Positions 46,212 to 64,000 of a DNA stretch of 64,000 nt are shown in pieces; positions within the stretch are counted from its first letter, which is position 1, and each line of letters starts with the position of its first letter. The position numbers were made by a program, and so were the translations under genes. The notes beneath the pieces were generated by a model, which saw only the letters and a list, made by a program, of their open reading frames with translations, ran no database searches and was not told where the DNA came from. Source of the stretch: Candidatus Poribacteria bacterium (GTDB taxonomy: Bacteria; Poribacteria; WGA-4E; WGA-3G); contig CBDBFU010000002.1 of assembly GCA_965205025.1 (NCBI GenBank), forward strand, positions 96,001-160,000, in the 5' to 3' direction.

Positions 46212-46226
46212 TTTGCGATCTAAATA

Positions 46227-46340
46227 ATACTATTTCTATAGATGTTTATCCCATGCATAGATGTTAAGCATGTCTTGAAAAACCACACAAACTGGAAGTT
46301 TATGCTACATTAAAGAAACCCTAAATATCAGAAATGGTAT
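46227..46340. mobile_element. MITE-like element (ATACCATTTCT family)
   Basis: Uninterrupted homologue of 2363-2590 and 38774-38901, lying between convergent genes. Confidence 0.75.
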
Positions 46341-46352
46341 AACTACCTCTTT

Positions 46353-47342
46353 TCACTTTTTGCTTTTATTGAGCGTTGATTCAATCATAGCATGGGTATC
46401 AGGTTCACTACATAGACTGAGAAAAATTTCATGTTCCAAGTCCAACAAGTACTGTTCTGTGACGAACTGTGGTTCTGAAAGTCTACCCCCACAGATAACA
46501 TACGCCAACTTTTCAGCAAGAGACTGCTCATAATCGTTTATGGCGTCTTCCTCTCTCAATTTCTGAACATGTAGATTTATATAGTTTATCCCTTCCTCAC
46601 CTAATACAAATATATTTCGTGGTTGATGTGGCTGATAATTATTGTTACGGAGTGATATGACAAGTTGTTTTGCATCATGTAGTAGGTTTGTTCTATCGGC
46701 AGTGATTAGATCAGATTCACGAAGGAAACCGAGTTTTTTTGCTTCAGCACTGTTTTCTGAAACTTTGGCTTCACGGATGGTGTCAAATGCCTCCAATAAA
46801 TTCGGCATTATCTGCTGAATCGGTGTTGATGTGTTTTTACCATCTAAACAACGGAATGCCATTTCTGTAGTACCACCACCACCGGGGATCAGTCCAACAC
46901 GAAGTTCAACGAGTCCAAGTTTGCTGTTCGTATGTGCTTGTATAGCGTCTGCTCCGATGGCAAGTTCACATCCACCCCCGAGTGCCATACCTGCTGTAGC
47001 TGCTACGACAGGTATTGATGAAAGACGTAGACGCGTACAAACCTTCTGCAGGTTTCTTAGTGTATTTGAAATTGCCTGCCAGTTTTGACTTTGTGCGCGT
47101 TCCAGTAATAGTTTAAGGTTGAGACCTACAGAAAAATGGTATGCTTCTGTACCGAGGATCAAACCTGAATAATTCGTTTCTACTTCGTCCAGGGCAGAAT
47201 TAAGCATTGATAGCATGCTATCTTCTATAATGTTCAACTTACCATGCAATTCAAGATAGGCGATACCATCACCTATGTGAAAAAGGCTTGCTTCTGCACT
47301 GGTTTTAATGGGTTTAGTATCTGATGTTTTGATTGTTGACAT
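46353..47342 (-). CDS. enoyl-CoA hydratase/isomerase family protein (like the C-terminal half of FadN-type proteins)
   Basis: FSVGLNL, ALGGGCE, GLVELRVGLIPGGGG and EQYLLDLEHEIFLSLC. Confidence 0.88.
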   Translation of the reverse strand: MSTIKTSDTKPIKTSAEASLFHIGDGIAYLELHGKLNIIEDSMLSMLNSALDEVETNYSGLILGTEAYHFSVGLNLKLLLERAQSQNWQAISNTLRNLQKVCTRLRLSSIPVVAATAGMALGGGCELAIGADAIQAHTNSKLGLVELRVGLIPGGGGTTEMAFRCLDGKNTSTPIQQIMPNLLEAFDTIREAKVSENSAEAKKLGFLRESDLITADRTNLLHDAKQLVISLRNNNYQPHQPRNIFVLGEEGINYINLHVQKLREEDAINDYEQSLAEKLAYVICGGRLSEPQFVTEQYLLDLEHEIFLSLCSEPDTHAMIESTLNKSKK

Positions 47343-47390
47343 TCCAATGATTCCTTTAATAGTTAAAACTCGCTATAGGTGTATGATGGG

Positions 47391-47789
47391 TTACGCATCA
47401 AAAATGTATGTGATTTCGTCAAAAGAATCTCGAGCAAATGTGAATATGAAAACCAGGGGTTCTTTTCCCGTGCAACGGACGGAATGTTTAGCATTGGGTG
47501 GTATGTAGATTGTTGATCCTGCGCAGACTTCTGCTTGAGAATCGTCAATTTGCATGAGTCCATTCCCACTGATGATGTAATAGGTTTCTTCTGGTTCGTG
47601 GTGATGTAGTAATAGTGATTCGCCGGGTGGTATTTCAGCTATTCCCGTTACTATTCCGCTACTTGGCATGCGTTCACTTGTGATTAGAAGCTTCCAGCGT
47701 ATAGGACTTTTTGCAGCAATTTCTGGGTCATCCCAACCTTCCCACTCAAGTTCGGACTGATTGAGGATGATAGGTTTCACAGATGTCAT
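47391..47789 (-). CDS. cupin domain protein, DddK/DddW-type DMSP lyase-like
   Basis: RWKLLI..SSG...GIAEIPPG..LHHHEPEETY...YIPPNAKH...F.FA.DSF.EI.Y.F. Confidence 0.7.
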   Translation of the reverse strand: MTSVKPIILNQSELEWEGWDDPEIAAKSPIRWKLLITSERMPSSGIVTGIAEIPPGESLLLHHHEPEETYYIISGNGLMQIDDSQAEVCAGSTIYIPPNAKHSVRCTGKEPLVFIFTFARDSFDEITYIFDA

Positions 47790-48239
47790 AATACTTCCTA
47801 TTCTTTGGATTATACAGATACGGATTAGTTATTATACAGCAATAGGTGTATGGTGACAATTCAATTATGATCTGAGGGTGTGTAAAGTTTTTGTCACTAA
47901 ACCTTATGCTGCTATTGGTCTGGATACCAATATTTATCTCAAGTATCATCTTTAGTTTTCATCTCAACTGTAATTATGTTAGATGTATGGATACTGTATA
48001 TTGTAAAAAACTGTTAATATTTGTCGTTTTGAGATGGTCTCACATTCACGGAAACCTTCACGGAGCATTTTTGCGAGCCCTTATTCTATAAGGGTTTATA
48101 ATTTTAACTATACCCATTCTCCGTGAATCACATACGTTAACTGTTATATAACTTAAATGCGTATGAACTGTATTTCTGGTTTTCAAATGAATACAACATT
48201 TCTATTTGTTCAACTTCCGTTTGCGTCCCATTCCTCTTC

Positions 48240-48283
48240 TGTAGGAGCGACCTCCTGGTCGCGACCGGGAGGTCGCTCCTACA
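48240..48283. repeat. GTAG-type REP doublet palindrome
   Basis: TGTAGGAGCGACCTCC-TGGTCGCGACCG-GGAGGTCGCTCCTACA. Confidence 0.8.
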
Positions 48284-49147
48284 AGTAAAGTGTCTAAATT
48301 ATATCTAAAGTTTACTATATTTACACACCCTTTAGCGTTCTTTATATTCATCCAATGGGTTATTATACTGTAAATTCCTCGTTTCAACTTATTAACAATA
48401 GTAATATTTATGTTATTTTAATGTTGAAAATAGTTACACTTTTTGTCACACGGTGTGACATTGATAAAACCTCTCTCCCGTCAGTACTATACTGGGTTTA
48501 GAGCCACTTTTTTAATGTCACAAGAATTTGTCACTGTGACGATTTTTGTGTCTTTTTCTTTACTTTTGATCCATTGATTTGGAATCGTTTGAATGTGAAA
48601 CATCTTATCCATCCATTTTGACATGGTATTAGAACATATCCCATAAATCATAGATTTGGAGGATTCTTTGTACGTGCAATTTGCTATATTTTGAACCAAC
48701 GGACGGGGAAACACTAATTCTATGAAGAGAATTATATCTGTATGGACGATTCGTAGTAATGAGATACACTGTAGTTTACTGTTGTGCATGATAGTCTGTT
48801 TTGTTTGAAGTCGGTCTAATTTTTAGTTTTTCAAGTTTTTTTAGTTGCTTTTTAAGAAATGCTTTTTTAATGAGCCGTAAACCCTGTTGGGGGTTGGGAT
48901 AACAAAGGATTTGATTAATAGGTGTAAAATTTTAAAATTAGAAAAACTAAAAAAATATTCGGTTGAATTCGTATTGATTTTCCTCCGTATCTGCTTTTTT
49001 AGCCTCTTACTATATATGTTTTGAGAACGATTCTCAAAAGTTTGCAATTCTGAATATTTTTGTTGTAGTTCTAACATGGATAATCCTATACTCCAGATAG
49101 TGAATTTAGTTAAATGTAGCAGGAAGTTAGAAGTAGCAATAATGAAA

Positions 49148-49256
49148 GTACCATAAATGTTTATCTCATGAACAGATGTTATACATGGCTTGAAATGCTG
49201 CACAAACTGGAAGTTTATGCTACATTAAAGAGATTTTCAATGATGGGAAACGGTAT
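49148..49256. mobile_element. degenerate MITE-like element (ATACCATTTCT family)
   Basis: Contains CACAAACTGGAAGTTTATGCTACATTAAAGAGA with eroded ends. Confidence 0.6.
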
Positions 49257-49457
49257 TCTATAGAATTATGTATTCTGATCCAGTTTCGAATATAATCAAT
49301 CCCGTGAAATCCTAAGTACTGTGTTAGTTTTAGTTTAATATAATTGAACGATATAGTATTGTACAATTTTATTTTCATTTTGACAAATATTTTTATGTTA
49401 TTGTGATATATGTATATTAGTTGTTAGATATTCATGTTTTCTTCATTTTATTTTTAT

Positions 49458-49621
49458 CAGGACTTACGCAGTTTGTGAAGAAAATAGGAGATTTTAGTCA
49501 AAAAATCCGACAATTAAGTACTTTTTGTTTTTTAACCCCCTAAAGAATCAACGGTATGAATGCCTTAGGGCATTCCCCGCCCCTTATCAGGGGAACTTTA
49601 AGAGGAAATGCGTAAGTCCTG
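49458..49621. mobile_element. MITE-like element (CAGGACTTACGCA ends) carrying a ~35 bp insertion
   Basis: Homologue of 44491-44613 with extra GAATCAACGGTATGAATGCCTTAGGGCATTCCCCG. Confidence 0.8.
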
Positions 49622-50023
49622 TTTCTTCAATAAATATACTTTAGGTAAATCCGAAAGGGTCATTAGTGTAGTGAGAATAAACTGTAAATCGGTAAATTCT
49701 GATTGGATTTATTTGTAATTGAGATTTCATTGGTGTTTATTATAGTGGCAAAGAGTTTACGCACCTATGATCTGATTTCAAGGGTATTGAAACAACGATA
49801 ACCAACTTACAAGTCAATGCAATACTGCTCGGATACGCGATCGTGACATTGGGATTTATTACACGATTGAGCAATGAGTTTTCTGGTTTTACATTAGGTG
49901 TATTCCTGAATCAATGTTAGGTCGTCCATTGATGTCGTTCAAATATATGATCATAGCATAAGACAAAATAGAAATATCAAACTTATTACAAAAAGTTAGA
50001 TAGGACAAGTCTTGAGTTTAATA

Positions 50024-50052
50024 TTGACATAATATTACCATCATGTTATGAT
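50024..50052 (+). promoter_or_regulatory. sigma70 promoter of the defence-like operon
   Basis: TTGACA-N17-TATGAT with a TG extended -10, about 80 bp upstream of 50131. Confidence 0.7.
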
Positions 50053-50130
50053 TATCCAAAATTGAATTAGTCTAAGAATATCTATTGCGCGCATCTCACC
50101 TTAAGATTTCTTAAATTCTGAATTAATATT

Positions 50131-52086
50131 ATGATTACTTACAAAGAATGGAATAAAGCACTTATTTCCTATTTTTTTGAAAAACGAGAACCTGGGGAAA
50201 TAGTCTTTCTACACACGACTTCTGAAACATTACCTGATATTGTGAAGCATGCAGGTTTTGATGTTGCGGATGCTGAAGAAAGTTTGAAGGAAACAGTAAG
50301 AAAACAGGTTATATTAAACAGAATCATTCCTACCGATGAGATTTGGCTTCGCAGGATCTCTCCTGCAGAAAAAGAACCTCCGCACATGGCTTTCCTTGCC
50401 CTTTGTGTACTCGCTGCAAGTAATATGGAAAAATCTGAAGAAGCCTCTCATACCAATTATTATGTGCAATTAAACAAACTACTGTTTGACAAATCGAATG
50501 GAGGAAAACCAAAAGGACTCAAATATCAAGATTGGGAAGAAAACTGGATATATCTCCAAGATTGGGTGAAAGATAAGCATGACGTAGAACTATATCTGAC
50601 AGAAGGTCATCCAAAGTATGTTTGGTATCCGATTTCGCAATGTCTGATTAGTAAATATGACGAACATAAACTTCATACTATTTTTAAGGAAGCTAAACTG
50701 AAACCTGGAGCATACCTTGCCGAGAAACAACTTTTTGACATACTTCGTATAAGCAAATATTTTCAAAATCTTTCAGTGAAAATAAAACGACCTTTAGAAC
50801 AAAAAACTGCTGAAATCCGATTGATTTTAGGTCAAGTCCAATTGCTTTTAGAAAACTGGGATGGTATAGTACAGGAGAGAAAGAAAATCGGATGGGCAGA
50901 AGAACGTAAGACTTACATAATTGATGTCCAACTAAAATTCAATCCATTCAGATCCGAACAAATTGATCAGCTTCGCTACTGGTTTAGATGTAGACGAAAC
51001 CCTCAAATTACTTTCAAAGCCAATTCACTAAACGTAAAAACTCTACAGTCAGATGATGGCAAGTGGTTTGAACCATTCGTTGTGGATGCTGATATTTCAA
51101 CACTCCAAGTACTGCAAAAAGGTATTGATATCAGATCTGAAGAAGCAAAATCGTTAACTTATCAGTTAAAACCTAACAATATTTGGGTTTTCCGGAACGA
51201 ATCAGAACCAGATGAAGGTTGGTTTAGCAAAGGGAACCTTTTGCTACACGAAGACCACCGTATAGTATTTCGCAAAGAACGTCGTAATCGAGTCACATCA
51301 ATATTGGAAATTGTATGCGAACCATTTAATCCGCCACAATCAATTTACATTGACCGTGAAGAAACAAATTGGCAATTTGTTGATGTTAAGCCAACAGTTT
51401 TAGCCAAATCAGATATTTTAGGATATCGTATAACGACATCAGAGCAAATTAGTTTTGTTGGTGGATTGCCTTTAGACAGACGAAAAAACCAATATTTTGA
51501 CTTTTGCCTTCCTACGATTGTTGTTCCTGACTACTATACAGTATCCGATGAACCTCTTTATTTCAATGGTAAAGCAATGAATGTACCAAGTAACCGAAAA
51601 ATTGTGCTTACTAAGAAACTTGATCCGGGTGAATATGAACTCTCCTATCTAATAAATTCTCGACCAAAATTGCGCGTTGTTTCTCTCAAACGCTCATGTG
51701 ATTTTGAAACTCAAACCTTTGTAATCAATATTGATCTTAATTCTAAGGATCCTCCTTTTTTCAAGGAATGTAATCTTGCCGAGATTTCAGATGATTCAAA
51801 ATTATGGCTTTCAGGAGCGAAGTTTTTTGGAGAAGACAAAATCCCGCGCTTGCCAAATGGTGGCAAAGGAGTATCTGCTTTGTCTGCTGCTGAACTTGTC
51901 TCGTCAATTGTGAAAGTCGCAATGGAACTAAAGCAGGATAATATTGATCTTCCAGAGTGGTTAAACAACGCAATGAATATTCTAAATCAAGACATAGCAT
52001 TACAAGCACTCGTAAAAAAGAAACTATATGATTACCGAGAAATTGCCCTGTCATATCAAGAACTCTCCGCTTTGGGAGGTGATTGA
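50131..52086 (+). CDS. hypothetical protein, first gene of Druantia-like operon
   Basis: 651 aa ORF whose end overlaps the next start. No catalytic motif recognised. Confidence 0.8.
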   Translation: MITYKEWNKALISYFFEKREPGEIVFLHTTSETLPDIVKHAGFDVADAEESLKETVRKQVILNRIIPTDEIWLRRISPAEKEPPHMAFLALCVLAASNMEKSEEASHTNYYVQLNKLLFDKSNGGKPKGLKYQDWEENWIYLQDWVKDKHDVELYLTEGHPKYVWYPISQCLISKYDEHKLHTIFKEAKLKPGAYLAEKQLFDILRISKYFQNLSVKIKRPLEQKTAEIRLILGQVQLLLENWDGIVQERKKIGWAEERKTYIIDVQLKFNPFRSEQIDQLRYWFRCRRNPQITFKANSLNVKTLQSDDGKWFEPFVVDADISTLQVLQKGIDIRSEEAKSLTYQLKPNNIWVFRNESEPDEGWFSKGNLLLHEDHRIVFRKERRNRVTSILEIVCEPFNPPQSIYIDREETNWQFVDVKPTVLAKSDILGYRITTSEQISFVGGLPLDRRKNQYFDFCLPTIVVPDYYTVSDEPLYFNGKAMNVPSNRKIVLTKKLDPGEYELSYLINSRPKLRVVSLKRSCDFETQTFVINIDLNSKDPPFFKECNLAEISDDSKLWLSGAKFFGEDKIPRLPNGGKGVSALSAAELVSSIVKVAMELKQDNIDLPEWLNNAMNILNQDIALQALVKKKLYDYREIALSYQELSALGGD

Positions 52087-53915
52087 CTGTGTATATAAAA
52101 CAATATCCTGAAGAAAAGCGAAAGATATTAGCTGAACATAGCACTAAGAATATTGATGATTTCGTAAAATTTTTGGAAGAAATTAAAGGTATAGAGGCAT
52201 CATATCTACAAAAGATGCTTACTCCTCCAAAAGGTTTTCCCAAAAATAAAAAACTAAAAACAGAAACAAGACACTATCTATTTAAGCAATTCATTTCCAA
52301 ATTGGTAGGAGAAAAAGATTTCTCTAATCCTGACTCTGACGTTTGGAATAAGTTTGGGCAGATTTTCAGATGGTGGGTCAAATCACAATCCGAACTTTTC
52401 AAAATACTTGAGGATTTTAAAAATGATGAGGATTTTGAGGAAAATGATAAGTCAGTTGAACCTAATAGTGTCCTTGATATCAAGTGTTTTGAAATCCTAC
52501 TCAAAGCAAATCGCAAACTCCAAATAAATCAGGAAATAATCCGGCGTTTTTACCAGTTCGGATATTTCCTCAAAGATGAACAAATTGAAGATCTTATTGA
52601 TAATGCTTTAACTCAAGAAGACATTGATCACAAGTGGAGAATAAAGGAACTTCCTGACAAGGTTGATGAATTATCTGAAACGATCTCGGATATTAAATCT
52701 CGTGTCTCTGCCGTGGAGTCTGCTAATGAATTGAAGCAGGAACTGAATGAACAAATTACAGGGTTAAGCAAATCCTTTGAGGATAATATCCAGAAACTCA
52801 ACGAACAAATTACAGAAGTCAGTGAAGCACTTAATGAAAAAATATCTAAAATAGAATTGAGTCAAACCAGTGATTTATCTAACCAGATTAATTCATTTAA
52901 ATCTCAGTTCACCGAGCTTAAAAAATCGGTTAGTAAGCTTGAAGATAAACGCCAAACAACTGAAGTGCCGCGAATTGCTAATCAAGCCGTAGAGATTGGA
53001 GAAAAAGCTGCTTCATTAATTAAAAATCGAAAAAAAACTAAAAATGAAAAAGATTACTTGAAAGCATTTAGTATCCCCCTCTGGCTTCTTGGAATTACTA
53101 ATCCTGAAGATTCTATTAAGACTGAAGCTATTCATATTGCGTTAAAGGCTTTTTCTGTTATAGAAATTCCTGACACACGAATTATTAACGCATGGAAAGC
53201 TGCTTGTGGTAACAACTTACACATCACAACACTTGATGTAGGAATGGGTTGGCTTGATTCACAAGATTGGTTTCCCAAACTTTTTTCTGAAATATGTTTT
53301 GGAGAACAATTAAGGCAAATGGATCTTGATGTTTCTGTAGAGGAAATGATAAACAAGGGTAATTTTTTATGGGCAATTCACTTAAATAATTACGACCGTT
53401 CATTTCCAGAAAGTTATCTACCCAGATTTCTAAAATGGTTGGGAGAACGCAAAGCCTTTGCTAAAGTCTTCGTAACGCGATGTCACAGTGAGAATCGTTG
53501 TAAAACCAGTTTTGAGGTATATAATGAAGTGGGTCAACTACCTAAACCCACAAAAACGCTGTCTATTAATCCGACAACACTACCGGATACTGATGCTATT
53601 ATTGATAAATCAGTTTGGGGAAAGTGGTGTCAGCCATCTGAGGAGACATTGTATAAAACAGAGGTTCAATTCTTGGACAAATTACAATCAGAAATAGAGA
53701 ATATCCCTTTATCACTTTTTCAGGACATCCAATCTTACCTTCTATTATCACATCAGATTATTGATCCTGATAAAGCCCTTGACTGGGCGTTATACTTACG
53801 CCTATGTCCTTGGATTGATGGTAGAACCAAAATTGAGGATGGTTTGTTTAGCTTAATCAACCAAGTCGATCTGGATCTACCGAAAACCAGGGCAGTTCTA
53901 CAGGAAAATTTTTAA
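52083..53915 (+). CDS. hypothetical protein with central coiled coil, Druantia-like operon
   Basis: 610 aa ORF with GGAGG SD and TTG start overlapping the upstream stop. Confidence 0.8.
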   Translation: MTVYIKQYPEEKRKILAEHSTKNIDDFVKFLEEIKGIEASYLQKMLTPPKGFPKNKKLKTETRHYLFKQFISKLVGEKDFSNPDSDVWNKFGQIFRWWVKSQSELFKILEDFKNDEDFEENDKSVEPNSVLDIKCFEILLKANRKLQINQEIIRRFYQFGYFLKDEQIEDLIDNALTQEDIDHKWRIKELPDKVDELSETISDIKSRVSAVESANELKQELNEQITGLSKSFEDNIQKLNEQITEVSEALNEKISKIELSQTSDLSNQINSFKSQFTELKKSVSKLEDKRQTTEVPRIANQAVEIGEKAASLIKNRKKTKNEKDYLKAFSIPLWLLGITNPEDSIKTEAIHIALKAFSVIEIPDTRIINAWKAACGNNLHITTLDVGMGWLDSQDWFPKLFSEICFGEQLRQMDLDVSVEEMINKGNFLWAIHLNNYDRSFPESYLPRFLKWLGERKAFAKVFVTRCHSENRCKTSFEVYNEVGQLPKPTKTLSINPTTLPDTDAIIDKSVWGKWCQPSEETLYKTEVQFLDKLQSEIENIPLSLFQDIQSYLLLSHQIIDPDKALDWALYLRLCPWIDGRTKIEDGLFSLINQVDLDLPKTRAVLQENF

Positions 53916-53925
53916 GAGGTGGTCA

Positions 53926-54819
53926 ATGCGTCAGAATCGTACACGTTTTTTAGATGAATTACTTTACTACCTTTCACATCTCGGTAAGATGCCTTGGGTA
54001 AAGTTTAAACAAGGAATTGAATGCCTAAATAGAGATAACAAGAATCCCCAAAGTGACTCCTTTTACCTTAAATCTCTTGCCTCTGTCGGACACTTGGAAT
54101 ACGATCCTGCGATATTAGATTGGGTTTATGTTGCTCCTCCGGTCCTTGTAGAAACTGCCACTCCAAACCAGTATGTTCTTGCCGGTAGTAGAACACCGGA
54201 CTTCATTTCTAAAATAGAGAAAACTGCATTATCAAATGGCGGGAAGTTACATCGTATTCAAGAAGTTGTTCCTGTTACCACAATTGTTTTGCGTGATTTG
54301 AACGAAGCGTCTATAAAGGAGATTGAAGGATGTGGTGTTCATATTAGCATTAAATTCTCCAAGAAATTGTCTTGTATCCTCCCCAATTTACGTTTAAATA
54401 GTTTTGCGCCAGATGAGTCTATGCTAAGTACACCAATTGAGAAATTTAACATTGAGACGTTGAAGTATGAAAATAATTCTTCAAATATATCTGAAGGTCT
54501 CTTTCGCATAATGAATCATGGACGTTATACACACTTCTTAAAATTGAACAATATTCAACGAATAGTACCACCAGAATGGGGGGCATGGTTAATACTTCGT
54601 GCCTTTCGCAAATCCAAATTAATATATTACAAAAAAGAACAGAACATCTTGCAGGTGAAGTTTCCACTGACTTTACCATTATTGGCAAACCGATGTGCGG
54701 TGCTCTGCTCTGGACACATACCTACATTGAAAAATGGGTTTTATTGTTACCGCAATGTCCCGATTGAGATAGCAGACAACATAGCCAAATCACTTAACCA
54801 ACAACTTGAGGAACAATAA
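53926..54819 (+). CDS. hypothetical protein, Druantia-like accessory
   Basis: 297 aa ORF with GAGGTG SD. Its stop overlaps the helicase ATG (TAATG). Confidence 0.8.
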   Translation: MRQNRTRFLDELLYYLSHLGKMPWVKFKQGIECLNRDNKNPQSDSFYLKSLASVGHLEYDPAILDWVYVAPPVLVETATPNQYVLAGSRTPDFISKIEKTALSNGGKLHRIQEVVPVTTIVLRDLNEASIKEIEGCGVHISIKFSKKLSCILPNLRLNSFAPDESMLSTPIEKFNIETLKYENNSSNISEGLFRIMNHGRYTHFLKLNNIQRIVPPEWGAWLILRAFRKSKLIYYKKEQNILQVKFPLTLPLLANRCAVLCSGHIPTLKNGFYCYRNVPIEIADNIAKSLNQQLEEQ

Positions 54820-57800
54820 TGACAGATCCTTTTGATATTTCTAATAAACTACGTGAATCCTATATTCGATATATTGAAACGGCTTTTAAGTTCAACAGTC
54901 CATCTTTAGAACAGAAGCCTGTTTTAGAACAGGAACGTCGAGCACTACTACAAAAAGAAGGCATGATTTATCAAGAACCACTCTTTGAACCGATTCTCCC
55001 TCCTAATTCGTCAGAGAAAACGCTATTCCAAGTTTGTTCTAATCTTGGAATCTCAAAAGATATTGCAGAATTCTTGGCTGCAGGTGGTGAAGAAGGACTT
55101 GCCCCGAGAACACGGAAACTTTACAAAAACCAATTTAAAGCAATAAAGGCTTCGTTAATTGACAAGCGAGATGTTGTTGTTACTACAGGAACGGGTTCTG
55201 GTAAAACAGAGTGTTTTCTTTTACCTATATTTAGTCAATTGGTCATGGAATCAAAAAATTGGCAACCATATGGAGACCGAAAACCTAAACCTTGGACGGA
55301 AAAAGGAAAAAGACAACGGGATGGTGAACACAAAGATAGACAGGCGGCGATTCGTGCACTAATTTTGTATCCGTTGAATGCACTGGTTGAGGATCAGTTA
55401 ATGCGGCTTCGCGGGGCGTGTGATAGTCCTAATGCTCATAAGTGGCTTGATGAGAACCGTGATGGGAATCGTTTTTATTTTGGACGTTACATTGGTTCAA
55501 CCCCTGTCGCAGGATCTGAGGAAAGAGATTACAAACGCATATTATTACGTGAAGAATTAAATAAATTATATGAACAAGCAAGACAAATTAAAGCCCAGGT
55601 TCAAAAGACAGATGATCAAAACATTCGTTACTATTTTCCACTAATGGAACCAGATACGGCAGAAATGTGGTCGCGTTGGGATATGCAGGATTATCCACCG
55701 GACATATTAATTACAAATTATGCGATGTTAAACATCATGTTAATACGAGATTTAGAGGAATCAATCTTTGAGAAAACGCGCGAATGGTTAGAAAAAGACG
55801 ATAGCGTTTTCTATCTTGTTGTAGATGAATTACATTCTTATCGTGGAACATCTGGGACGGAAGTTGCCTATCTGTTAAGAACACTGTTTTCTCGTCTTGG
55901 TCTTGAACCTGATTCGCCAAAATTGCGAATAATAGCGAGTAGTGCATCTTTAGAAGGAGAATATGGAGATAAATATCTCAAACAATTTTTTGGAAGAAGT
56001 AGCAGTTTTGAGCGAATTACTTCAGATCCAATTTGTGCTTCAGACGAACCGCTTCGCGAGTGTTTGAAACATGCAGATGCATTTAAGACGTATGATGAGG
56101 GATACAAGGATACAGAATTACCCGTCAAACCTGAAATGCTTAAAGAAGCGGTAATTAGACTCTGCAATCAAAATGAAAAATTACTTGCGTCAAAGATAGA
56201 TCAAATGGTTACTGTTGCAAAGGATGTCGTAGGAGAGGAAATTTCAGAACAAACTATTCGCGGTATGATTCGTTATCTAATTCGTCAGAAGAACCCTCAG
56301 GAACCTGAACAAGCACTTCTGCCGTTGCGTACACATTACTTATTCAAGAATTTTGAGGGGATATGGGTATGTAGTAATCAAGCATGTAGTGGGGTCGAAC
56401 ACGCTGAACAACGTCCTCCAATAGGTAAGTTGTTCTCAGCTCCGAAAACTCTCTGTGATGATTGTGGGTCGCGCGTGTTGGAGTTGTGGGCATGTCAAAC
56501 ATGTGGTGATCTGTTTTTAGGTGGCTATAAAAGACCAGTTTCTAAAGATCCACTAGACGGTTGGTGGCTTAGTGGTGACTTCCAACAGTTGGAAGGTTTG
56601 CCAGAACGTAATATCAAAGATCGGAGATATAGCAACTATGCCATTTTTTGGTTGGGGACAGAAAAGCCGAAACAACCCCAACCCTGGTGGAGGAAAAACG
56701 GAATTAAAAGAAAATGGACAAAGGGACAATTTGACTCATTTCGTGGTGTTCTTAAACCCAAACCATCTGAAAATAACTGCTACTTTTATAAAATTTTCGA
56801 AAACGAATTGAATAAGAATGACACAGATAAATGTTCAGAAGTCCCAAAATACTGTCCAAAATGTGGAGACTTTTGGGATTTTTTGTCGGAACGGTTTATT
56901 GGTGGTAAGGAAGAGGCTGTCTCACCAATCCGTAAAATGGGAACAGGATTGCAAAGGGTACTTCAAGTTCTCGTTCAGACCTTGCAAAATTCAATTGATG
57001 ATGAAAATAAACGCAAAACGATTGTTTTTTCTGACAGCCGAGGTGACGCTGCTAAATTGTCAGTAGGTATAGAGTATTCACATTACTTAGACATGATACG
57101 TTCCATTACGGTCAAGTCTTTAGACGAAGTGGAAGAAAGCCCTGATTTGATGACGATTCTTGATGCTATTCAAGGTAAAGAAATAGATCATGTCAAGTTT
57201 TATGAGGCACTCGGTCGAATTGCCGGAATGCCGGGATGTGAAGGTACCTTAATTCATTCCATTAACGAGGCATCTACGAAAAATGAAAGTTTAACTGAAG
57301 AACAAGAAACCCAACTTCGCTCCTTGTTCTCCGATTACTCTTTTATAAAACTTGAAAACAGCGTTTTTGATCGTTTTATTAATCTTGGAATGAATCCTGG
57401 AGGTTATGGTATAAAAGTTGATGGTTACTCACAACAAGTAAAAGATGGTGAAGAAGTGCGCAGATGGGTGGAACTATTTGATTGGTCTGAAAATACAGTA
57501 TCAAGAAAAGAATTCGAAGGTTTGAGTGATCCTCAAAAGGACCTCTTACGCAGAATTCAACAACAACTTCGTCAAACAATTACAGAACGTATTTTGTTTG
57601 CTCGTAGGGGAACAGGTTTAGAAGGACTCGGATTGGGGTGGTGTGAACCGAAAATTGATCCTAAACTATGGACAATTGATGAACTTGATGTAGCAGAAAT
57701 GATGTCAGCAGTCGTACGGATTCTTGGTGAGCGGAATCGGACAACACTCACTCATAAACCATATCCGGATATACCGGATTTCCTTAAGAAATACCTAAAT

Positions 57801-60308
57801 AAATCAGCTAAGCAAATTGATTGTGAACCAACCGAACTGGAATCAGTAATTAAGGATCAAATTGGCTTAAATGACGGAAGTTTCGACCAAAACCGCGTTA
57901 ATATGGAGAGACTGGTAATTCGAAAGCGCAAGAATAATCTGGTTTTTATATGCTCAGTTTGCCAACGCATACACCTCTATAAAGCAAGCGGACTCTGTAC
58001 AAACACCTTGTGTTTAGGTGATTTAAAACCTATTGAGATTGTTGATATATCTGAAAAATTTGGAGGTTATCATTCCTATCAGGCAAAGTTAGGTATTGAA
58101 CCTTACCGTCTCCACTGTGAAGAATTATCAGGGCAAACAGATTCAGAGGATAGACCCAAGCGACAACGCTGGTTCCAAAATGCAACTCTCAACAGCGAAA
58201 ATAAACGTTCTGATCCTGTAGATTTGCTTTCTGTAACAACAACAATGGAGGCAGGTGTTGACATTGGAGGACTCTCTATTGTTTTAATGGGTAATGTTCC
58301 TCCCCAACGTTTCAATTATCAGCAACGGGTAGGCCGTGCAGGAAGACGTGGAGATGCGGTTTCTTACGCATTAACGCTGTGTCGATCGCGGACTCATGAT
58401 GAACACTACTTTACAAATCCAGAAGAAATTACCAGTGCACCAACTCCACCGCCGTATCTTGATCTGCGACGCGATGATATAATAAAACGTATCATTGCAA
58501 AAGAGGTACTGTACCAAGCATTCAAAGATGTTTCTAAAGCAAATGAGTTTTCAGACACCGATAATGTACATGGTGAGTTTGGAAAAGTATCGGATTGGAA
58601 GACGAATCGAAAACAACTTATAAAATGGACATCGTCAAATAGAAGTAGAATAAAACAGATCGTCCAGTTGCTTAGTGTCCAGACTGAGCCGGAAATAGCC
58701 AACAATGTCTATGAACTAATAGACTGGGTTGTCAAGGAACTTGTAAATGAGATTGATAAGTATGCCGAAAACCATCCATTTGAGATGGACGACCTGAGTC
58801 AAGCCCTTGCAGAGTCGGGACTTTTACCAATGTTTGGTTTCCCAACGCGAACCCGTTTGTTGTATCATGAAAAGCCAAAAGGTAAGCCATGGCCACCAAA
58901 GTCTGGCAAAGTTGACCGAGACATTGAGGTAGCGATTAGCGAGTTTGCTCCAGGTTCAGAAACGATCAAAGACAAAAGAATCCATACTTCAATAGGAATA
59001 GTCTCTTACCGTCCTTCCTGGAATAACTATGCAATTCCTGAAGATGGTATAGCACACCCCTTGACAATCGGTTTTTGTCCTGAATGTAAATCCATTTTTG
59101 CCAACGAAGAATCCGTGGAAGCTGCTTCTTGCCAAACCTGTAATGCTGAAAGTGGATTTCAGCAAATAGAAAGTTTTGAACCAAAAGGTTTTCTGACAGA
59201 TTTTCAACCTACAGATGCTGCCGAATATTTTGAATGGAAACCTCGCGCAACCTACTCTCGTCTTCCTTCGGATATTAATATTAAATTCAATACGAATACT
59301 AATTTCCATTACGGAACGAATCGTGATGAAAAAGTCCATTTGTTATCAATTAATAATAATGATGGATCGGGTTTTAATCTTGGAAGATTTAAAAGAGGAA
59401 AAGAGTTGGTGTCACCTCAAGTTTTAAAAGAATTGGTAGAACGAAAAAATGGTAAATTTGACCAAGACCAAGTTTTTGAAGGCAAACTCAAAAAAACCGC
59501 TATTCACGCAAGTAAAGTAACCGACGTATTATTGATAGAAATCAACTCAATTCCGGATGGAATTAAGTTAGATTATACTGAAGTTTACGCTCGATCAGCC
59601 TTATATTCTTTTGGTTATCTTCTACGCAAATATGCTGCAATTCAAGAATTGGACATTAGCACAGATGAATTACAGGTAGAAATTCGCCCTTTCCGACGCG
59701 ATGAAAATGTCTATGGGCAAATATTTCTCGCTGATAAGTTGGCGAACGGTGCTGGATATTGTCGTCATCTTGCTGATTTCAATGATAAGGGTGAACTTCG
59801 TCTTAGGAACATACTACAAAAGATGGTAAAAGAAGATTCTAATTTTTACCGTGAACTTGTAGATCATGGACATCAATGTGATTCATCTTGTTACAAATGT
59901 ATGCGGGATTACTCAAATATGGCATATCACCCGCTTATGGATTGGCGATTGGGTATGGATTTAGTCAATCTCTGTCTTAATGAAGAATTTGCTATCAATC
60001 TTGAGAAACCATATTGGTCGCCGCTTGTGAAGAGTGTAAAAAAGAACCTATTAGAACTAGTTGGCAATGAGAATGAAATGAAATGGGAGAATCGCTATGG
60101 AATACATATTCTTTTAGGTCAAATAAAAAACGAGAAAAAAGCGTTTATTTTGCATCATCCACTCGCTGTTTACGATAAATCAGACCCCAGACCGGAGAAT
60201 TTCGCTCGTGTTTTTGTTGAATTAAAGAAAGAAGGATTCCTTATAGAAACTATCAACATTTTTGAAGCAATTAGAAGGATAAGCGAATTTATCGAACTAT
60301 TCTATTAA
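54819..60308 (+). CDS. SF2 DEAD/DEAH-box helicase with Zn-binding motifs and C-terminal DUF1998 (Druantia DruE-like)
   Basis: TGTGSGKTE, YPLNALVEDQ, DELH, SAS, TTTMEAGVDIG and QRVGRAGRR. Several CxxC. C-terminal C..SCYKCMRDYSN...H..DWR. 1829 aa. Confidence 0.9.
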   Translation: MTDPFDISNKLRESYIRYIETAFKFNSPSLEQKPVLEQERRALLQKEGMIYQEPLFEPILPPNSSEKTLFQVCSNLGISKDIAEFLAAGGEEGLAPRTRKLYKNQFKAIKASLIDKRDVVVTTGTGSGKTECFLLPIFSQLVMESKNWQPYGDRKPKPWTEKGKRQRDGEHKDRQAAIRALILYPLNALVEDQLMRLRGACDSPNAHKWLDENRDGNRFYFGRYIGSTPVAGSEERDYKRILLREELNKLYEQARQIKAQVQKTDDQNIRYYFPLMEPDTAEMWSRWDMQDYPPDILITNYAMLNIMLIRDLEESIFEKTREWLEKDDSVFYLVVDELHSYRGTSGTEVAYLLRTLFSRLGLEPDSPKLRIIASSASLEGEYGDKYLKQFFGRSSSFERITSDPICASDEPLRECLKHADAFKTYDEGYKDTELPVKPEMLKEAVIRLCNQNEKLLASKIDQMVTVAKDVVGEEISEQTIRGMIRYLIRQKNPQEPEQALLPLRTHYLFKNFEGIWVCSNQACSGVEHAEQRPPIGKLFSAPKTLCDDCGSRVLELWACQTCGDLFLGGYKRPVSKDPLDGWWLSGDFQQLEGLPERNIKDRRYSNYAIFWLGTEKPKQPQPWWRKNGIKRKWTKGQFDSFRGVLKPKPSENNCYFYKIFENELNKNDTDKCSEVPKYCPKCGDFWDFLSERFIGGKEEAVSPIRKMGTGLQRVLQVLVQTLQNSIDDENKRKTIVFSDSRGDAAKLSVGIEYSHYLDMIRSITVKSLDEVEESPDLMTILDAIQGKEIDHVKFYEALGRIAGMPGCEGTLIHSINEASTKNESLTEEQETQLRSLFSDYSFIKLENSVFDRFINLGMNPGGYGIKVDGYSQQVKDGEEVRRWVELFDWSENTVSRKEFEGLSDPQKDLLRRIQQQLRQTITERILFARRGTGLEGLGLGWCEPKIDPKLWTIDELDVAEMMSAVVRILGERNRTTLTHKPYPDIPDFLKKYLNKSAKQIDCEPTELESVIKDQIGLNDGSFDQNRVNMERLVIRKRKNNLVFICSVCQRIHLYKASGLCTNTLCLGDLKPIEIVDISEKFGGYHSYQAKLGIEPYRLHCEELSGQTDSEDRPKRQRWFQNATLNSENKRSDPVDLLSVTTTMEAGVDIGGLSIVLMGNVPPQRFNYQQRVGRAGRRGDAVSYALTLCRSRTHDEHYFTNPEEITSAPTPPPYLDLRRDDIIKRIIAKEVLYQAFKDVSKANEFSDTDNVHGEFGKVSDWKTNRKQLIKWTSSNRSRIKQIVQLLSVQTEPEIANNVYELIDWVVKELVNEIDKYAENHPFEMDDLSQALAESGLLPMFGFPTRTRLLYHEKPKGKPWPPKSGKVDRDIEVAISEFAPGSETIKDKRIHTSIGIVSYRPSWNNYAIPEDGIAHPLTIGFCPECKSIFANEESVEAASCQTCNAESGFQQIESFEPKGFLTDFQPTDAAEYFEWKPRATYSRLPSDINIKFNTNTNFHYGTNRDEKVHLLSINNNDGSGFNLGRFKRGKELVSPQVLKELVERKNGKFDQDQVFEGKLKKTAIHASKVTDVLLIEINSIPDGIKLDYTEVYARSALYSFGYLLRKYAAIQELDISTDELQVEIRPFRRDENVYGQIFLADKLANGAGYCRHLADFNDKGELRLRNILQKMVKEDSNFYRELVDHGHQCDSSCYKCMRDYSNMAYHPLMDWRLGMDLVNLCLNEEFAINLEKPYWSPLVKSVKKNLLELVGNENEMKWENRYGIHILLGQIKNEKKAFILHHPLAVYDKSDPRPENFARVFVELKKEGFLIETINIFEAIRRISEFIELFY

Positions 60309-60320
60309 GGATATATTTTT

Positions 60321-61421
60321 ATGCAAGTTCAACCACTACCAAAACTCAATCCAATCACGAAGCTTTCCCCTACACTTTTTGCCACCTTAAGACAGTGTCA
60401 ATTACGTGCAGGATTAAGTCACGCCAGAGCTCAACGGACAACCAAAATTTCAACAGCCGCACTGTTAGGAACGATTGCCCATCGCGTATTAGAAGATGCA
60501 AGAACATTGAAACGTGATGAGGATTTACGAAAACAGGCAAAGACACTGTGGGATAAAACTGTGGAACAAGTAGAGAAGACACTACAGAATTCACCACTTG
60601 ACAAGAGCTTATTGCCAATTAGTAGATGGAAAAAATACTACCTTTTAAGAGAATATACGATTTGTAGATGTGAAGAGATTGCGCTGGGTCACGGAATATC
60701 TGAAAGGCAGGTCATCGCAAGTGAGCGAAAATTCGATAATCTTGAATATGGATTCACTGGCAAACCTGATTTAATCATTCGTCGAGAAAATGGTCTGGTA
60801 ATAATAGACTACAAAAGTACCGAGTTATCTGATGATCCAGAAGAGCGAGATGAAAAGGTTGAATCTTGGCGACGACAAGTCAAGTTCTACGCTTCAATTG
60901 TAAAATCTGAATTTGGAGAGTATCCAGTAGAAGGAGAAATCAGATTACTAAACGGAGGTGTAATCCCAATTCCTATCAATCCTGAGGAAGTGGAACAACT
61001 CATGGCAGAAGCAAGAATATTAAAAGAAAAGTACAATGCTAATATTGCTGCGGGTGTTCCAGAATCGAAATTGGCACAATATTCCGAAGAGAATTGTGGT
61101 TTTTGTGATTACAAAGGGTCATGTAACACATTCTGGAAAATGAATCCAATTCCAGGTGCGGACGAATTCGGTTCCTTGAGTGGGAAAATCGTTAGATTAT
61201 CAAATACAGAAAAAGGAGTAGGTAGTATTGTCATTGCTTCTGATATGAAAAACGAAGCAACGAAGGAATGGAAGATTACGAATCTATCAATAGATAAATT
61301 CGAAGGACTTAGGGAATTGAAAAAAGGAGATTTTGTTAGGTTAATTGACTTTAAAATAGATTCTCAAAATGAATTTCATGCAAAACCCACTCGAAATTCA
61401 GTCATTTGGAAGGTTCCCTAA
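60321..61421 (+). CDS. PD-(D/E)XK nuclease, Cas4/AddB/RecB-like with probable Fe-S cluster
   Basis: LSPT..C, GTIAH..LE, E..GKPDLI, IIDYKS, Q..FY and CGFCDYKGSC. Confidence 0.88.
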   Translation: MQVQPLPKLNPITKLSPTLFATLRQCQLRAGLSHARAQRTTKISTAALLGTIAHRVLEDARTLKRDEDLRKQAKTLWDKTVEQVEKTLQNSPLDKSLLPISRWKKYYLLREYTICRCEEIALGHGISERQVIASERKFDNLEYGFTGKPDLIIRRENGLVIIDYKSTELSDDPEERDEKVESWRRQVKFYASIVKSEFGEYPVEGEIRLLNGGVIPIPINPEEVEQLMAEARILKEKYNANIAAGVPESKLAQYSEENCGFCDYKGSCNTFWKMNPIPGADEFGSLSGKIVRLSNTEKGVGSIVIASDMKNEATKEWKITNLSIDKFEGLRELKKGDFVRLIDFKIDSQNEFHAKPTRNSVIWKVP

Positions 61422-61510
61422 TTCTATTCAAACAATACTATCTAATGGGAGTTCGGTTTAAGCAATAGTATCCATTAGTGCGGTTAGATACCGTACCATA
61501 GGCGTCAATT

Positions 61511-61775
61511 AGATACACCTTTCGCCCCGCTGGGGCTTATTATTTAGGGTTTGTACGTTTGCTACATACCTTTCGCCCCGCTGGGGCTTGGTATATTGGT
61601 GATAACGACTTCTATAAACATTCCGTCCCTACCAAATCAACGGTATGAATGCCATTTAGGCATTCCCCGGGACTCATTTAATGGGTTAATCCTTTTTCTA
61701 TAGACATTCCGTCCCTACGGGACTCAAGTATAGGATATTCCCGTTTTTCTATAGACATTTCGTCCCTACGGGACT
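61511..61775. repeat. five-unit repeat-spacer array, period 50-51 bp
   Basis: Two copies of ACCTTTCGCCCCGCTGGGGCTT and three of TTCTATARACATTYCGTCCCTACGGGACT (one interrupted), with unique 20-22 bp spacers. Confidence 0.85.
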
Positions 61776-61810
61776 ACATAAATTATAAGAATAGAGAAGA
61801 AATGTAAGGA

Positions 61811-61836
61811 TCGGGGATCGGAGTTCCCTCCTACAG
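61811..61836. repeat. GTAG-type REP-like sequence
   Basis: Reverse complement CTGTAGGAGGGAACTCCGATCCCCGA. Confidence 0.45.
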
Positions 61837-61849
61837 AAGAGGTTATACG

Positions 61850-64000
61850 TTATTTAAGTATTAGTATTTTACCAACCTTTTGTACGCTTTTATCATTTTT
61901 GGTGGCGGTGAATTTGTATATATAGACACCGTTGGCAAGAGGGTCTCCGTCTTCGTCCAATCCATCAAAATGGTATTCGTTGTAAGATGTGTCCGCATCC
62001 AATGTATCCACATTTCTGATGAGTCTACCCGTAAGTGTATAGATCTTAAGGCTGACTGTGTCTGCGTTTTCCGTAAGATAGTATGCGAAGTCTGTGCCTT
62101 TGCCAGGACGGAACGGATTTGGGAAGTTCGCAATGTTTTTTATCTCTAATCCGCCTGCAACTTTTCCGTTGAGTTCTGTTTCCGCTGTGTTCCCGTTTGC
62201 ATCCTGTGCCTGTAAACGAATACGATACTCCCCTGGTTGCAATGCATGATCTGGTGAATGGGTTAGCAGGAGAACATTACTATTTGTGGGTGAGGTAGAT
62301 ATTATATACTCGTACTGGGGAACACGATTTCCGTTTCTGGTAAGGATGATATTGTCTGGTCGCGGATCTATCCCATTTGCATCCACAATCCTTGCGGAGA
62401 TAGTAGGCAAATCAGAAATATAATCACCATCAACAAACCCTTGATCTTCCACAGTTAATTCCAGTAATGGTGGACGATTATCTGAGTGAGATAGTAGTGC
62501 GAAGGTTCCGGGTAGTTTAACCTTGGCAGAAATAGTTTCACCATCCTCAGTTTGGTTGCCAACACGTATCCAATTCCCTGTTTCATCATCACGCATGTAG
62601 ATATGTGATTTTACTTCAGTCTTACTAACAAAAGTAGCTGTCCCTGTTAATTCAGTTTGTTGTTTCAAGTTAATCTGATATGCCATAGGAGCTGTCTGTT
62701 CAATCCCAGATGGTTTTATAATATCTGGTTGATTTTTGATGATTAACTCCTGTGTTTCAAAGATCAGTGTTGATGTCTCTTGCAGACTGTCCTTAGGTAT
62801 TGTGATACGAAAAGCACCATCTATACTTTGTATCGGTTGGTTGATGTTCTCTGAAGTGAGAAAGACAGTGTTGTTAACGAATTCTTTGGATGAACTGTTG
62901 TTGGATTCTCGTACCTCCTTAATTAGACCACTTGGTTGTTCGTCTGTTGGCATATCTACAAAGACAGTAACAGTGTATTCACCAGGTTTCGGTTTCCATG
63001 GCACACTTGCTATAACATATTCATCAGGAGGTATTTCAGGAATAATCTGCACAACGCCGATTTGTGTTGCATTTTTTAGGTCTTCAAGCGTAATTTCTTG
63101 TTCCACAGGAGATCTATTTGCTGGTAATTGTAAGAAATGTACAGGAACATTCTTGCCAGAAATATCACCATTGTTTTTAATCTGTGCGGAGAGATTGAAA
63201 GAAGCATCCGTACTCCAATTGATTGTGTGTCCTAAAACAGAGAAATCTGGCTCACCTACCCCGTAGGTGACCACCTGTGTTTGTAGTATCCGTCCATCCT
63301 TAGGTATAACGAGTAGATAATAATCAATCAGATCCCCTCTATCAGCAGCTGGAATAGGGTATTCTGTTCTATAAATTCCTGCCTTTTGATGCACCAAAGG
63401 AATTTTTTCTACATCCAATACTTGACGTCGATCTTCAATTACCTGATAACTCCAGTAGAGAGTTATTGTATCGATTTCTTTTCTATTTAACACCTCCACA
63501 TAGACATGGACAGGTTCATTAGGTGGGATAGGATCAGGTTCCAGACGAATATTTTTGACAAATCGTTCAAGTGGAGTATATGATGTATACCCTATCGCAT
63601 CTTCTTGTGTATTCCAGGCGTATGCTCTCACCTGTAATGCATCGAAAGCACTATTATAAGGGATTGGCATTTGTGTTTGGAACTTCCCATCAACTACCGA
63701 GACAGTTTCGATTCGAGGCACGTCATCCACAGAACGTACAAGTGGTGCGGTTATATTTCTGGGTCCAATAGGTCTTTTCTTTTGTATTCTTTCTGGTGGG
63801 TTAGGTATAACCGTAATCTCAGCATCACCGGTAAAGTCTGGATTCGGCAGACTCCCAGCAACAGTTAATAGTGTATCTTTTCCCTCGTTATCCCTTTCAT
63901 TGGGATCGTCCAGATTTATATTTAGTTTCATTTCGGTGCGTGGCAATCTTAACCGAGTTGCTGGATCACCGAAAAGCGTAAAGACCTCCGTAAGATCAAT
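61850..64000 (-). CDS. C-terminal part of gingipain C25/PorU-like protein with CARDB-like and FlgD-Ig/T9SS-A-like tail (5' end outside window)
   Basis: The frame is open to the window edge: IDLTEVFTLFGDPATRL (C25 end motif), IKEVRESNN (CARDB-like), and NFPNPF...IYTLTGRLIR...DG.DEDGDPLANGVYIY. Confidence 0.8.
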   Translation of the reverse strand: MDLTEVFTLFGDPATRLRLPRTEMKLNINLDDPNERDNEGKDTLLTVAGSLPNPDFTGDAEITVIPNPPERIQKKRPIGPRNITAPLVRSVDDVPRIETVSVVDGKFQTQMPIPYNSAFDALQVRAYAWNTQEDAIGYTSYTPLERFVKNIRLEPDPIPPNEPVHVYVEVLNRKEIDTITLYWSYQVIEDRRQVLDVEKIPLVHQKAGIYRTEYPIPAADRGDLIDYYLLVIPKDGRILQTQVVTYGVGEPDFSVLGHTINWSTDASFNLSAQIKNNGDISGKNVPVHFLQLPANRSPVEQEITLEDLKNATQIGVVQIIPEIPPDEYVIASVPWKPKPGEYTVTVFVDMPTDEQPSGLIKEVRESNNSSSKEFVNNTVFLTSENINQPIQSIDGAFRITIPKDSLQETSTLIFETQELIIKNQPDIIKPSGIEQTAPMAYQINLKQQTELTGTATFVSKTEVKSHIYMRDDETGNWIRVGNQTEDGETISAKVKLPGTFALLSHSDNRPPLLELTVEDQGFVDGDYISDLPTISARIVDANGIDPRPDNIILTRNGNRVPQYEYIISTSPTNSNVLLLTHSPDHALQPGEYRIRLQAQDANGNTAETELNGKVAGGLEIKNIANFPNPFRPGKGTDFAYYLTENADTVSLKIYTLTGRLIRNVDTLDADTSYNEYHFDGLDEDGDPLANGVYIYKFTATKNDKSVQKVGKILILK

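Follow-up and report, generated by a model that had tools for sequence, protein, structure and literature searches.

A five-gene operon occupies positions 50131 to 61421 of a 64,000-nucleotide stretch of Candidatus Poribacteria DNA (contig CBDBFU010000002.1, positions 96,001 to 160,000; hereafter the window), and its centre is a giant helicase of the kind found in Druantia anti-phage systems, which are widespread. The list of open reading frames (ORFs) gives exactly the five tightly coupled genes described in the first-pass annotation of this DNA, with products of 651, 610, 297, 1829 and 366 amino acids (aa). All five lie on the forward strand; gene 1 overlaps gene 2 by 4 nucleotides (nt) and gene 3 overlaps gene 4 by 1 nt, and gene 2 is separated from gene 3, and gene 4 from gene 5, by gaps of 10 nt and 12 nt, respectively; coordinates throughout are window positions and are collected in Table 1. 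The genes are designated druF, druC-like (gene 2), druL, druE and druK, and the arrangement is abbreviated as F-C-L-E-K. We read the operon as a type IV-family Druantia anti-phage system which has two additions, namely DruK as an optional nuclease and, between druF and druL, the DruC-like gene, and which is seated in an accessory insertion of a Poribacteria-like genome. The probability that we assign to this reading is roughly 0.8.

The five proteins were searched against the family models of PADLOC-DB 2.0.0, Pfam and NCBIfam. Dedicated PADLOC models match four of the five genes (DruF4, DruL4, DruE4 and DruK), and nothing in NCBIfam rises above its cut-off in any of the five proteins. Druantia type IV was defined by Payne et al. 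in 2021, with PADLOC, as DruE, DruF and DruL without DruM or DruG, and the text of that paper counts 168 instances across 11 phyla (PMC8565338); according to the text of a 2026 preprint, DruE falls into four clades and type IV accounts for 18% of 566 loci (10.64898/2026.05.13.724313). Everything in this definition that can be examined in sequence was found at the locus, with DruE, DruF and DruL present and no PADLOC match to DruM, DruG or DruH among the five proteins. The DruG2 model (PDLC00024) has no match genome-wide and equally none in four proteobacterial genomes or in the 400 scored genomes of that class. DruA, DruB and DruD likewise gave no PADLOC match at E ≤0.01 in the five proteins, and the locus fails the definitions of types I, II and III, the shared DruC of type I excepted. 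Since type IV was already defined in 2021 and its models match, the operon belongs to a described subtype.

The first-pass annotation had proposed a Druantia-like operon centred on DruE, with no methylase motif and no recognised DUF4338 protein, and the searches bear this out: Pfam and PADLOC detect neither a methylase domain nor DUF4338 in any of the five proteins, and no methylase domain was seen in the near-flank ORFs. Its list of known Druantia types ended at type III and so lacked type IV, and its proposal that the added nuclease makes the locus a variant or undescribed system falls, as PADLOC already holds two DruK models and type IV dates from 2021. Asked whether all genes match an already described subtype, the nuclease included, the models answer yes for four of the five. 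Gene 2 is the sole component outside the type IV definition, and the annotation, which drew attention to the five-gene order, had not singled it out.

DruE matches the DruE4 model over residues 1-1826 with 1687.8 bits, followed by DruE2 (1555.6 bits), DruE1 (674 bits) and the DruE3 models (313-421.7 bits). In Pfam, the DEAD and Helicase_C domains pass their cut-offs and MZB lies just under its own (23.3 against 24.2 bits). The sequence GTGSGKT at residues 124-130, DELH at 336-339, motif VI at 1168-1178 and several cysteine pairs are invariant among 15 homologues, and conserved cysteines stand at positions 1687, 1691 and 1694. The protein has a close solved relative in PDB 9wae_A ('Helicase', 1970 aa), found with a profile at E 1.2e-293 and with the single sequence at E 5.9e-168. 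The DruE profile matches this chain along nearly its whole length, and six further PDB entries also match; a paper on 9wae was not found in the literature searched.

DruF and DruL are recognised through their PADLOC models. DruF matches DruF4 at 3e-34 and DruF2 at 1e-30 and has no Pfam or NCBIfam family and no relative by sequence in the PDB. Its AlphaFold2 model (pLDDT 78, from the predicted local distance difference test) has an immunoglobulin-like beta-sandwich at about residues 436-544 as its sole structural match, with 2yn3_A as the counterpart (Z 8.6, root-mean-square deviation (rmsd) 2.8, 85 aligned residues), and a Foldseek search of the model against the PDB returned nothing at E ≤0.001. 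The protein atlas offered a weak YjiT_N lead for DruF, at 0.86-0.87, which is under the reliability level. DruL matches DruL4 at 8.4e-31 over model positions 4-307 of 309; no Pfam, NCBIfam or PDB relatives were found, and its protein atlas scores of 0.78 or less give no lead. In one related locus (L012, 3054-6422) DruF and DruL are fused into a single protein of 1122 aa, which agrees with the long PADLOC DruF2 models of about 1010-1030 positions, whose C-terminus aligns with DruL.

Gene 2 gives a weak match to the PADLOC model DruC1 (9.7e-10) besides coiled-coil noise. Its family comprises 85 clusters among 5.8 billion proteins, all with at least 35% identity and none named, and a profile search of 1.84 billion representatives with this family retrieved 676 proteins at E ≤0.001. 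Below the family itself stands a second tier of proteins of 590-700 aa, whose N-terminal half is matched at 1e-46 to 1e-23; eight of the 12 scanned in this tier match DruC1 at 1e-44 to 2e-64. When the family was aligned with DruC1-like proteins using hhalign, the probability was 100 (E 4.6e-55) over 519 columns which include the C-terminal domain, and the DruC encoded by the type I locus annotated on the Pseudomonas putida plasmid pKF715A was matched over the N-terminal 164 columns with a probability of 92.4 (E 5.2e-7).

The AlphaFold model of gene 2 (pLDDT 71.4; predicted template modelling score, pTM, 0.47) consists of a helical N-domain (about residues 1-180), a coiled coil (about 194-289) and an alpha/beta, AAA+-like domain with a helical lid (about 319-598). 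The only chains which the C-domain matches at Z ≥8 are the MoxR-type AAA+ protein 2r44_A (Z 10.6, rmsd 4.1, 230 aligned) and RavA, 3nbx_X (Z 9.8, rmsd 4.7, 224 aligned). In the PDB, a sequence search with gene 2 found coiled-coil matches only, and the top rows of a Foldseek search with the model were AAA+ proteins at E 0.017 or weaker. A Walker A motif, searched as [AG]x4GK[ST], was seen in none of 18 family members and none of 17 DruC1-like proteins. Because of the DruC profile match, the MoxR/RavA-like fold and the missing Walker A motif, gene 2 is predicted to be a DruC that has diverged and that combines a coiled coil with an AAA+ domain devoid of catalytic activity. The prediction agrees with the text of Bell et al. 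(2025), in which the McrB-like (CnuB) homologue encoded by Druantia I and II is described as inactivated and as having an extended coiled coil (PMC12458937). The likeness to this 'Type IV CoCoNuT' reading of Druantia I and II lies in the pairing of a coiled coil with an inactivated nucleotide-binding domain, McrB-like GTPase there and predicted MoxR/RavA-type AAA+ here; McrB, the relative named there, is not among the structural matches listed for our model, and the text of the preprint mentions no type IV, DruL, DruF or Cas4-like partner (PMC12458937). In the related locus L009 (4997-7743) the DruC-like gene is broken up: its two ORFs, of 357 and 182 aa, have about 1.1 kb between them, and this suggests insertion or decay.

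The neighbourhoods of DruE homologues were compared using an alignment of DruE, which led to 569 confirmed loci in species-representative genomes; the best-scoring 80 were kept. ORFs were called mechanically and searched with length-restricted, iterated hidden Markov models; the length limits exclude the L012 fusion and a long ORF of L044, and the counts are unchanged by this. The closest loci (51-80% identity) come from metagenome-assembled genomes of Candidatus Poribacteria and the next tier, at about 35%, from many phyla. Upstream of DruE, in the 59 loci with at least 3500 nt of sequence, DruF was found in 58, DruL in 53 and gene 2 in seven. These seven, in each of which gene 2 lies between DruF and DruL, are all Poribacteria relatives and are all of the Poribacteria-clade loci with upstream sequence (7/7). 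The six loci without a DruL match are the L012 fusion, the permuted L028, L031, and three in which DruL is very divergent (L058, L063 and L076). Both L028 and L064 have the permuted order DruE-DruK-DruF-DruL in place of the usual DruF-DruL-DruE-DruK.

A second lineage with a gene in the middle position is formed by five loci (L056, L058, L063, L068 and L076) from Bacteroidota, Bacillota, Spirochaetota and an unassigned bacterial genome, which have an ORF of 560-680 aa between a DruF-like ORF and an ORF of 276-295 aa preceding DruE. The small proteins are homologues of DruL (probability 97.9, E 3.6e-13); between the middle proteins and the gene 2 family the match is weak (probability 88.8, E 2.5e-6) and extends over 287 columns, the AAA+-like region among them. 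In L058 and L063 (full or part) and in the upstream ORFs of L056, PADLOC reports DruE only, plus a marginal DruF4 match (7e-4), and as this lineage is thus seen almost only through DruE, current classifiers probably miss or under-call part of the subclade.

A FastTree phylogeny was built from 69 DruE proteins of at least 1650 aa, on a quick alignment of 1679 columns, with the type I DruE of pKF715A as the single outgroup. The Poribacteria clade (10 tips) and the second lineage (five tips) each have a support of 1.0 and are sisters in a group of 15 tips with a support of 0.996. From this sister grouping of the two lineages that have a middle gene, the F-C-L-E order marks one DruE subclade. These gene identities, this order and the presence and absence of genes among relatives are taken from homology and comparison. 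As for type IV itself, the locus is alike in that DruF, DruL and DruE match the type IV models, DruM and DruG have no match and F, L and E stand in the order of most related loci; unlike it, the locus adds the 610-aa DruC-like gene, of which five more loci have a distant equivalent, and the optional DruK. What is new here is the DruC-like gene together with the DruE subclade marked by the F-C-L-E order, the added nuclease being already catalogued. A description of F-C-L-E-K was not found in the literature text, a search that had preprint figures and supplements (Bell et al.) and PADLOC definitions outside its range.

DruK is matched by two PADLOC models named DruK ('PD-(D/E)XK nuclease') at 6.7e-30 and 2.3e-24 and by Cas4 at 1e-10. 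In Pfam it scores 82.9 bits on PDDEXK_1 (cut-off 22, E 4.4e-23); on the NCBIfam cas4 model it reaches 26.6 bits, short of the 65-bit cut-off, and a PDB sequence search found no relative. In an alignment of gene 5 with 25 DruK-like ORFs of related loci (n = 26), the residues C26, G50, H54, E135, G147, D150, Q186, Y190, C259, C262 and C268 are invariant, and D163 and K165 are kept in 25. This is the residue pattern of Cas4/AddB proteins, with a PD-(D/E)XK core of the form D...(D/E)xK, the QxxxY motif and four cysteines, of which one is N-terminal and three are C-terminal, and both iron-sulphur (Fe-S) binding and nuclease activity are predicted from it. Unlike Cas4 and AddB, DruK is extended at its C-terminus by about 100 residues, is twice as large as the Cas4 models and stands in no CRISPR or AddA context. 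The first-pass annotation had seen an Fe-S type PD-(D/E)XK nuclease behind the helicase, with which the Pfam score and the four invariant cysteines agree, and had asked whether the nuclease is conserved beside DruE homologues. It is a common optional module: a DruK-like ORF directly follows DruE in 29 of the 64 loci with at least 1300 nt of downstream sequence. The name DruK was met with Druantia in no paper of the literature searched nor in the supplement of Payne et al. (2021), being a database model only, and we infer that DruK is a type IV accessory from the model name and its number next to DruL4.

Of the Poribacteria-clade loci, that of the window and L001, L002, L004, L005 and L009 have DruK, and L003, L006 and L007 lack it. 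Right after DruE, L003 has a 49-residue remnant of the DruK N-terminus (E 2e-5), which points to loss of the gene. In the DruE tree DruK is scattered over most subclades. From the 35 loci without DruK, 17 downstream ORFs were scanned and found to encode five C-5 cytosine methylases, one HNH protein, SIR2 and others, defence-like or housekeeping. The slot after DruE is variable, with DruK its commonest occupant in the sampled loci. The methylases stand just after DruE in L014, L017, L032, L035 and L043, whose cores are DruF, DruL and DruE by PADLOC, and that of L035 matches DruM2 at 2.8e-111; in these five loci the distinction between types II and IV becomes less sharp. Our own locus is unlike type II, as it has no match to the DruM cytosine methylase or to DruG.

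These comparisons bear on the simplest alternative, a plain type IV system of DruF, DruL and DruE in which gene 2 and druK are mere passengers. Type IV as published requires, in the text of its definition, only these three proteins (PMC8565338), DruK is missing in 35 of 64 loci and gene 2 in 52 of 59, and quite different genes follow DruE elsewhere. Against passengers, gene 2 has a core gene on either side and shares 4 nt with druF, it is present in all Poribacteria-clade loci with upstream sequence, its relatives are type I DruC proteins, and the sister DruE lineage has a distant equivalent in this position; DruK, for its part, is represented by Druantia models of its own and turns up in most of the DruE subclades. 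On balance we consider this alternative unlikely.

The distribution of the operon among related genomes is patchy. Gene 2 is present in 14 of 61 related genomes, namely its own (G000), 10 of 36 congeners and three of 24 in other genera of the order. Five congeners, picked for the absence of gene 2, were checked at the site: in four (G017, G005, G001 and G022) the GNAT-domain gene and the FlgD-Ig/CARDB gene that flank the region in the window are 26-495 nt apart, and in the fifth (G009) there was no GNAT match. From the adjacency of the flanking genes in four of five congeners, the window holds an insertion of 15.6 kb. In L003 the operon directly follows homologues of ndk and of the GNAT gene, and the right-flank gene is shared by L001 and L009. 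Tight coupling and patchy distribution, with an empty site in four of five congeners, form a pattern typical of defence genes.

The same data make it very improbable that the operon is a module for housekeeping repair or recombination, combining a YprA/MrfA-like helicase and an AddB-like nuclease, with no part in defence. Such a module would have precedents, as the YprA family includes repair helicases (PDB 6znp, YprA, is matched by DruE at 5.6e-19) and Cas4/AddB nucleases act in end resection, and an experimental test of type IV was not found in the literature searched. Set against this are the 1688 bits of DruE on DruE4 as compared with sub-threshold matches to repair-type NCBIfam models, the occurrence of gene 2 in so few of the related genomes and the absence of the whole block, with its flanking genes adjacent, in four of the five congeners; patchy presence of this kind is not expected of a core repair function. 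Equally far-fetched is a reduced type I system (B-C-D-E without DruA) whose DruB and DruD, as DruF and DruL, have diverged very strongly: order and sizes do parallel type I of pKF715A (558, 625, 260 and 1841 aa against 651, 610, 297 and 1829 aa) and the middle gene is a true DruC homologue, but in hhalign the DruF profile matches DruB with a probability of 0.1 and the DruL profile DruD with 1.0 (a single type I sequence in each case and hence of low sensitivity), DruE reaches 1688 bits on DruE4 against 674 on DruE1, and neither DruA nor DUF4338 was found with PADLOC and Pfam.

The operon and type I of pKF715A have in common a homologous DruE and a protein of the DruC family, encoded directly ahead of the small protein next to DruE; unlike type I, the operon has no DruA or DUF4338, a similarity of its DruF and DruL to DruB and DruD was not detected, and its DruE lies in the DruE4/DruE2 branch. 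One DruE subclade retains a DruC-type, predicted dead AAA+ coiled-coil protein otherwise known from type I, and the type IV core is combined, after DruE, with modules that can replace one another, be it a Cas4-like nuclease, a cytosine methylase or nothing. This offers a concrete hypothesis for how the Druantia types are related. A bolder proposal, which we put forward tentatively and consider possible rather than probable, is that F-C-L-E(-K) is a fifth Druantia subtype linking I and IV, in which the dead AAA+ DruC-like scaffold would organise DruF, DruL and DruE and the Cas4-like nuclease would add AddAB-like degradation. If true, the DruC-type scaffold would date back to ancestral Druantia and would since have disappeared from most type IV systems.

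To our knowledge, a mechanism has been worked out for type III only among the Druantia types. As described in parts of the 2026 preprints, DNA intermediates that are forked or single-stranded are sensed or processed by type III DruH, and DruH recruits DruE, which translocates 3'-5' and degrades DNA as well (10.64898/2026.05.13.724313). By analogy with type III, the DruE of our operon would be an ATP-driven motor. DruF and DruL could be sensor or loader subunits and the DruC-like protein a non-enzymatic scaffold or regulator; DruK would cut DNA in trans, so that helicase and nuclease would degrade invading DNA in an AddAB-like manner. DruK may nevertheless be dispensable, because there are sister loci without it. 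Like type III, the operon would pair a giant DruE motor with DNA-directed nuclease activity, which is predicted here. Unlike type III, it has no DruH match, and the DruE3 models reach at most 422 bits against 1688 for DruE4; moreover, going by those parts of the preprints, type III DruE itself contains the nuclease and DruH acts as an exonuclease, whereas here a separate, Cas4-like protein is the sole clearly predicted nuclease. In a five-gene construct, the contributions of scaffold and nuclease would be separable by deletion.

Several points weigh against our reading. A published phage test of Druantia type IV was not found in the literature searched, and the defence function that we infer for the operon therefore rests on homology to types I to III. 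DruK cannot be the sole effector, being missing in 35 of 64 loci including three sister Poribacteria loci, and the roles suggested for DruF and DruL are guesses, since neither has a recognisable fold or family. The AAA+ assignment of gene 2 comes from a model of moderate confidence for which Foldseek gave no match at E ≤0.001 in the PDB. The 80 loci were taken from 569 by best score and are no random sample. Lastly, the text of the CoCoNuT preprint predicts an inactivated Vsr domain in the DruE C-terminus for types I and II only (PMC12458937).

Table 1. Features of the operon and its surroundings in window coordinates
Feature	Position	Strand	Description
GNAT-domain gene	45234-46211		left flank of the insertion
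Accessory insertion	46212-61849		15.6 kb; operon, enoyl-CoA hydratase-like gene, cupin gene, two small ORFs
Upstream part of the insertion	46353-49203		enoyl-CoA hydratase-like gene, cupin gene, two ORFs (100 aa, 120 aa) with no family
120-aa ORF	48841-49203		weak AbiEii match
Left flank repeat	49538-49580		dispersed repeat
Candidate operon promoter	50024-50052	+	TTGACA-17 nt-TATGAT with upstream TG, 11/12 consensus; 79 nt 5' of the druF start
druF (gene 1)	50131-52086	+	signature accessory protein of Druantia types II and IV (predicted); ATG start
druC-like (gene 2)	52083-53915	+	predicted divergent DruC; TTG start
druL (gene 3)	53926-54819	+	defining accessory protein of Druantia type IV (predicted)
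druE (gene 4)	54819-60308	+	predicted giant superfamily 2 (SF2)/YprA-family helicase, Zn-binding modules, MZB/DUF1998 region
druK (gene 5)	60321-61421	+	predicted Cas4/AddB-type PD-(D/E)XK nuclease; four conserved Cys, putative Fe-S site
Right flank repeats	61517-61775		dispersed repeat
Possible terminator	61524-61536	+	GC hairpin, then T-rich run; about 100 nt past the druK stop, within dispersed repeat
FlgD-Ig/CARDB gene	61850-64000	-	right flank of the insertion; very large protein

The first-pass annotation had placed the operon behind a consensus sigma-70 promoter and between repeat-rich flanks, and both features are there. A near-consensus site is present, and it is the top-scoring sigma-70-like site of the region 49000-62000; in the same region 31 promoter-like sites were observed against 39.9 +/- 5.7 in shuffled sequence. 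As such sites are not enriched over shuffles, the promoter is plausible and yet no evidence by itself. The possible terminator counts for little, since eight terminator-like sites were observed and 8.1 expected. The GC content of the operon is 0.34-0.42, that of the upstream sequence 0.40-0.43.

Repeats are indeed present on both sides of the operon, with the core ATCAACGGTATGAATGCC beside hairpin-forming GC motifs. This 18-mer core has 243 copies with at most one mismatch in the 5.66-Mb genome, often clustered (the reversed control has none), and the repeat looks like an element of this lineage of the REP (repetitive extragenic palindrome) or MITE (miniature inverted-repeat transposable element) type. 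It is a genome-wide dispersed element and not an island border: att sites were considered for the flank repeats and are ruled out by the 243 copies and by the absence of any tRNA gene in 30000-64000. An integrase-like domain was found in none of the eight flanking ORFs scanned.

Upstream of the operon, the 120-aa ORF of the insertion has its AbiEii match at 3e-4, and the other insertion ORFs are without a PADLOC match. On the right, the FlgD-Ig/CARDB gene has several paralogues per genome, and in relatives its frame extends to about 1750 aa.

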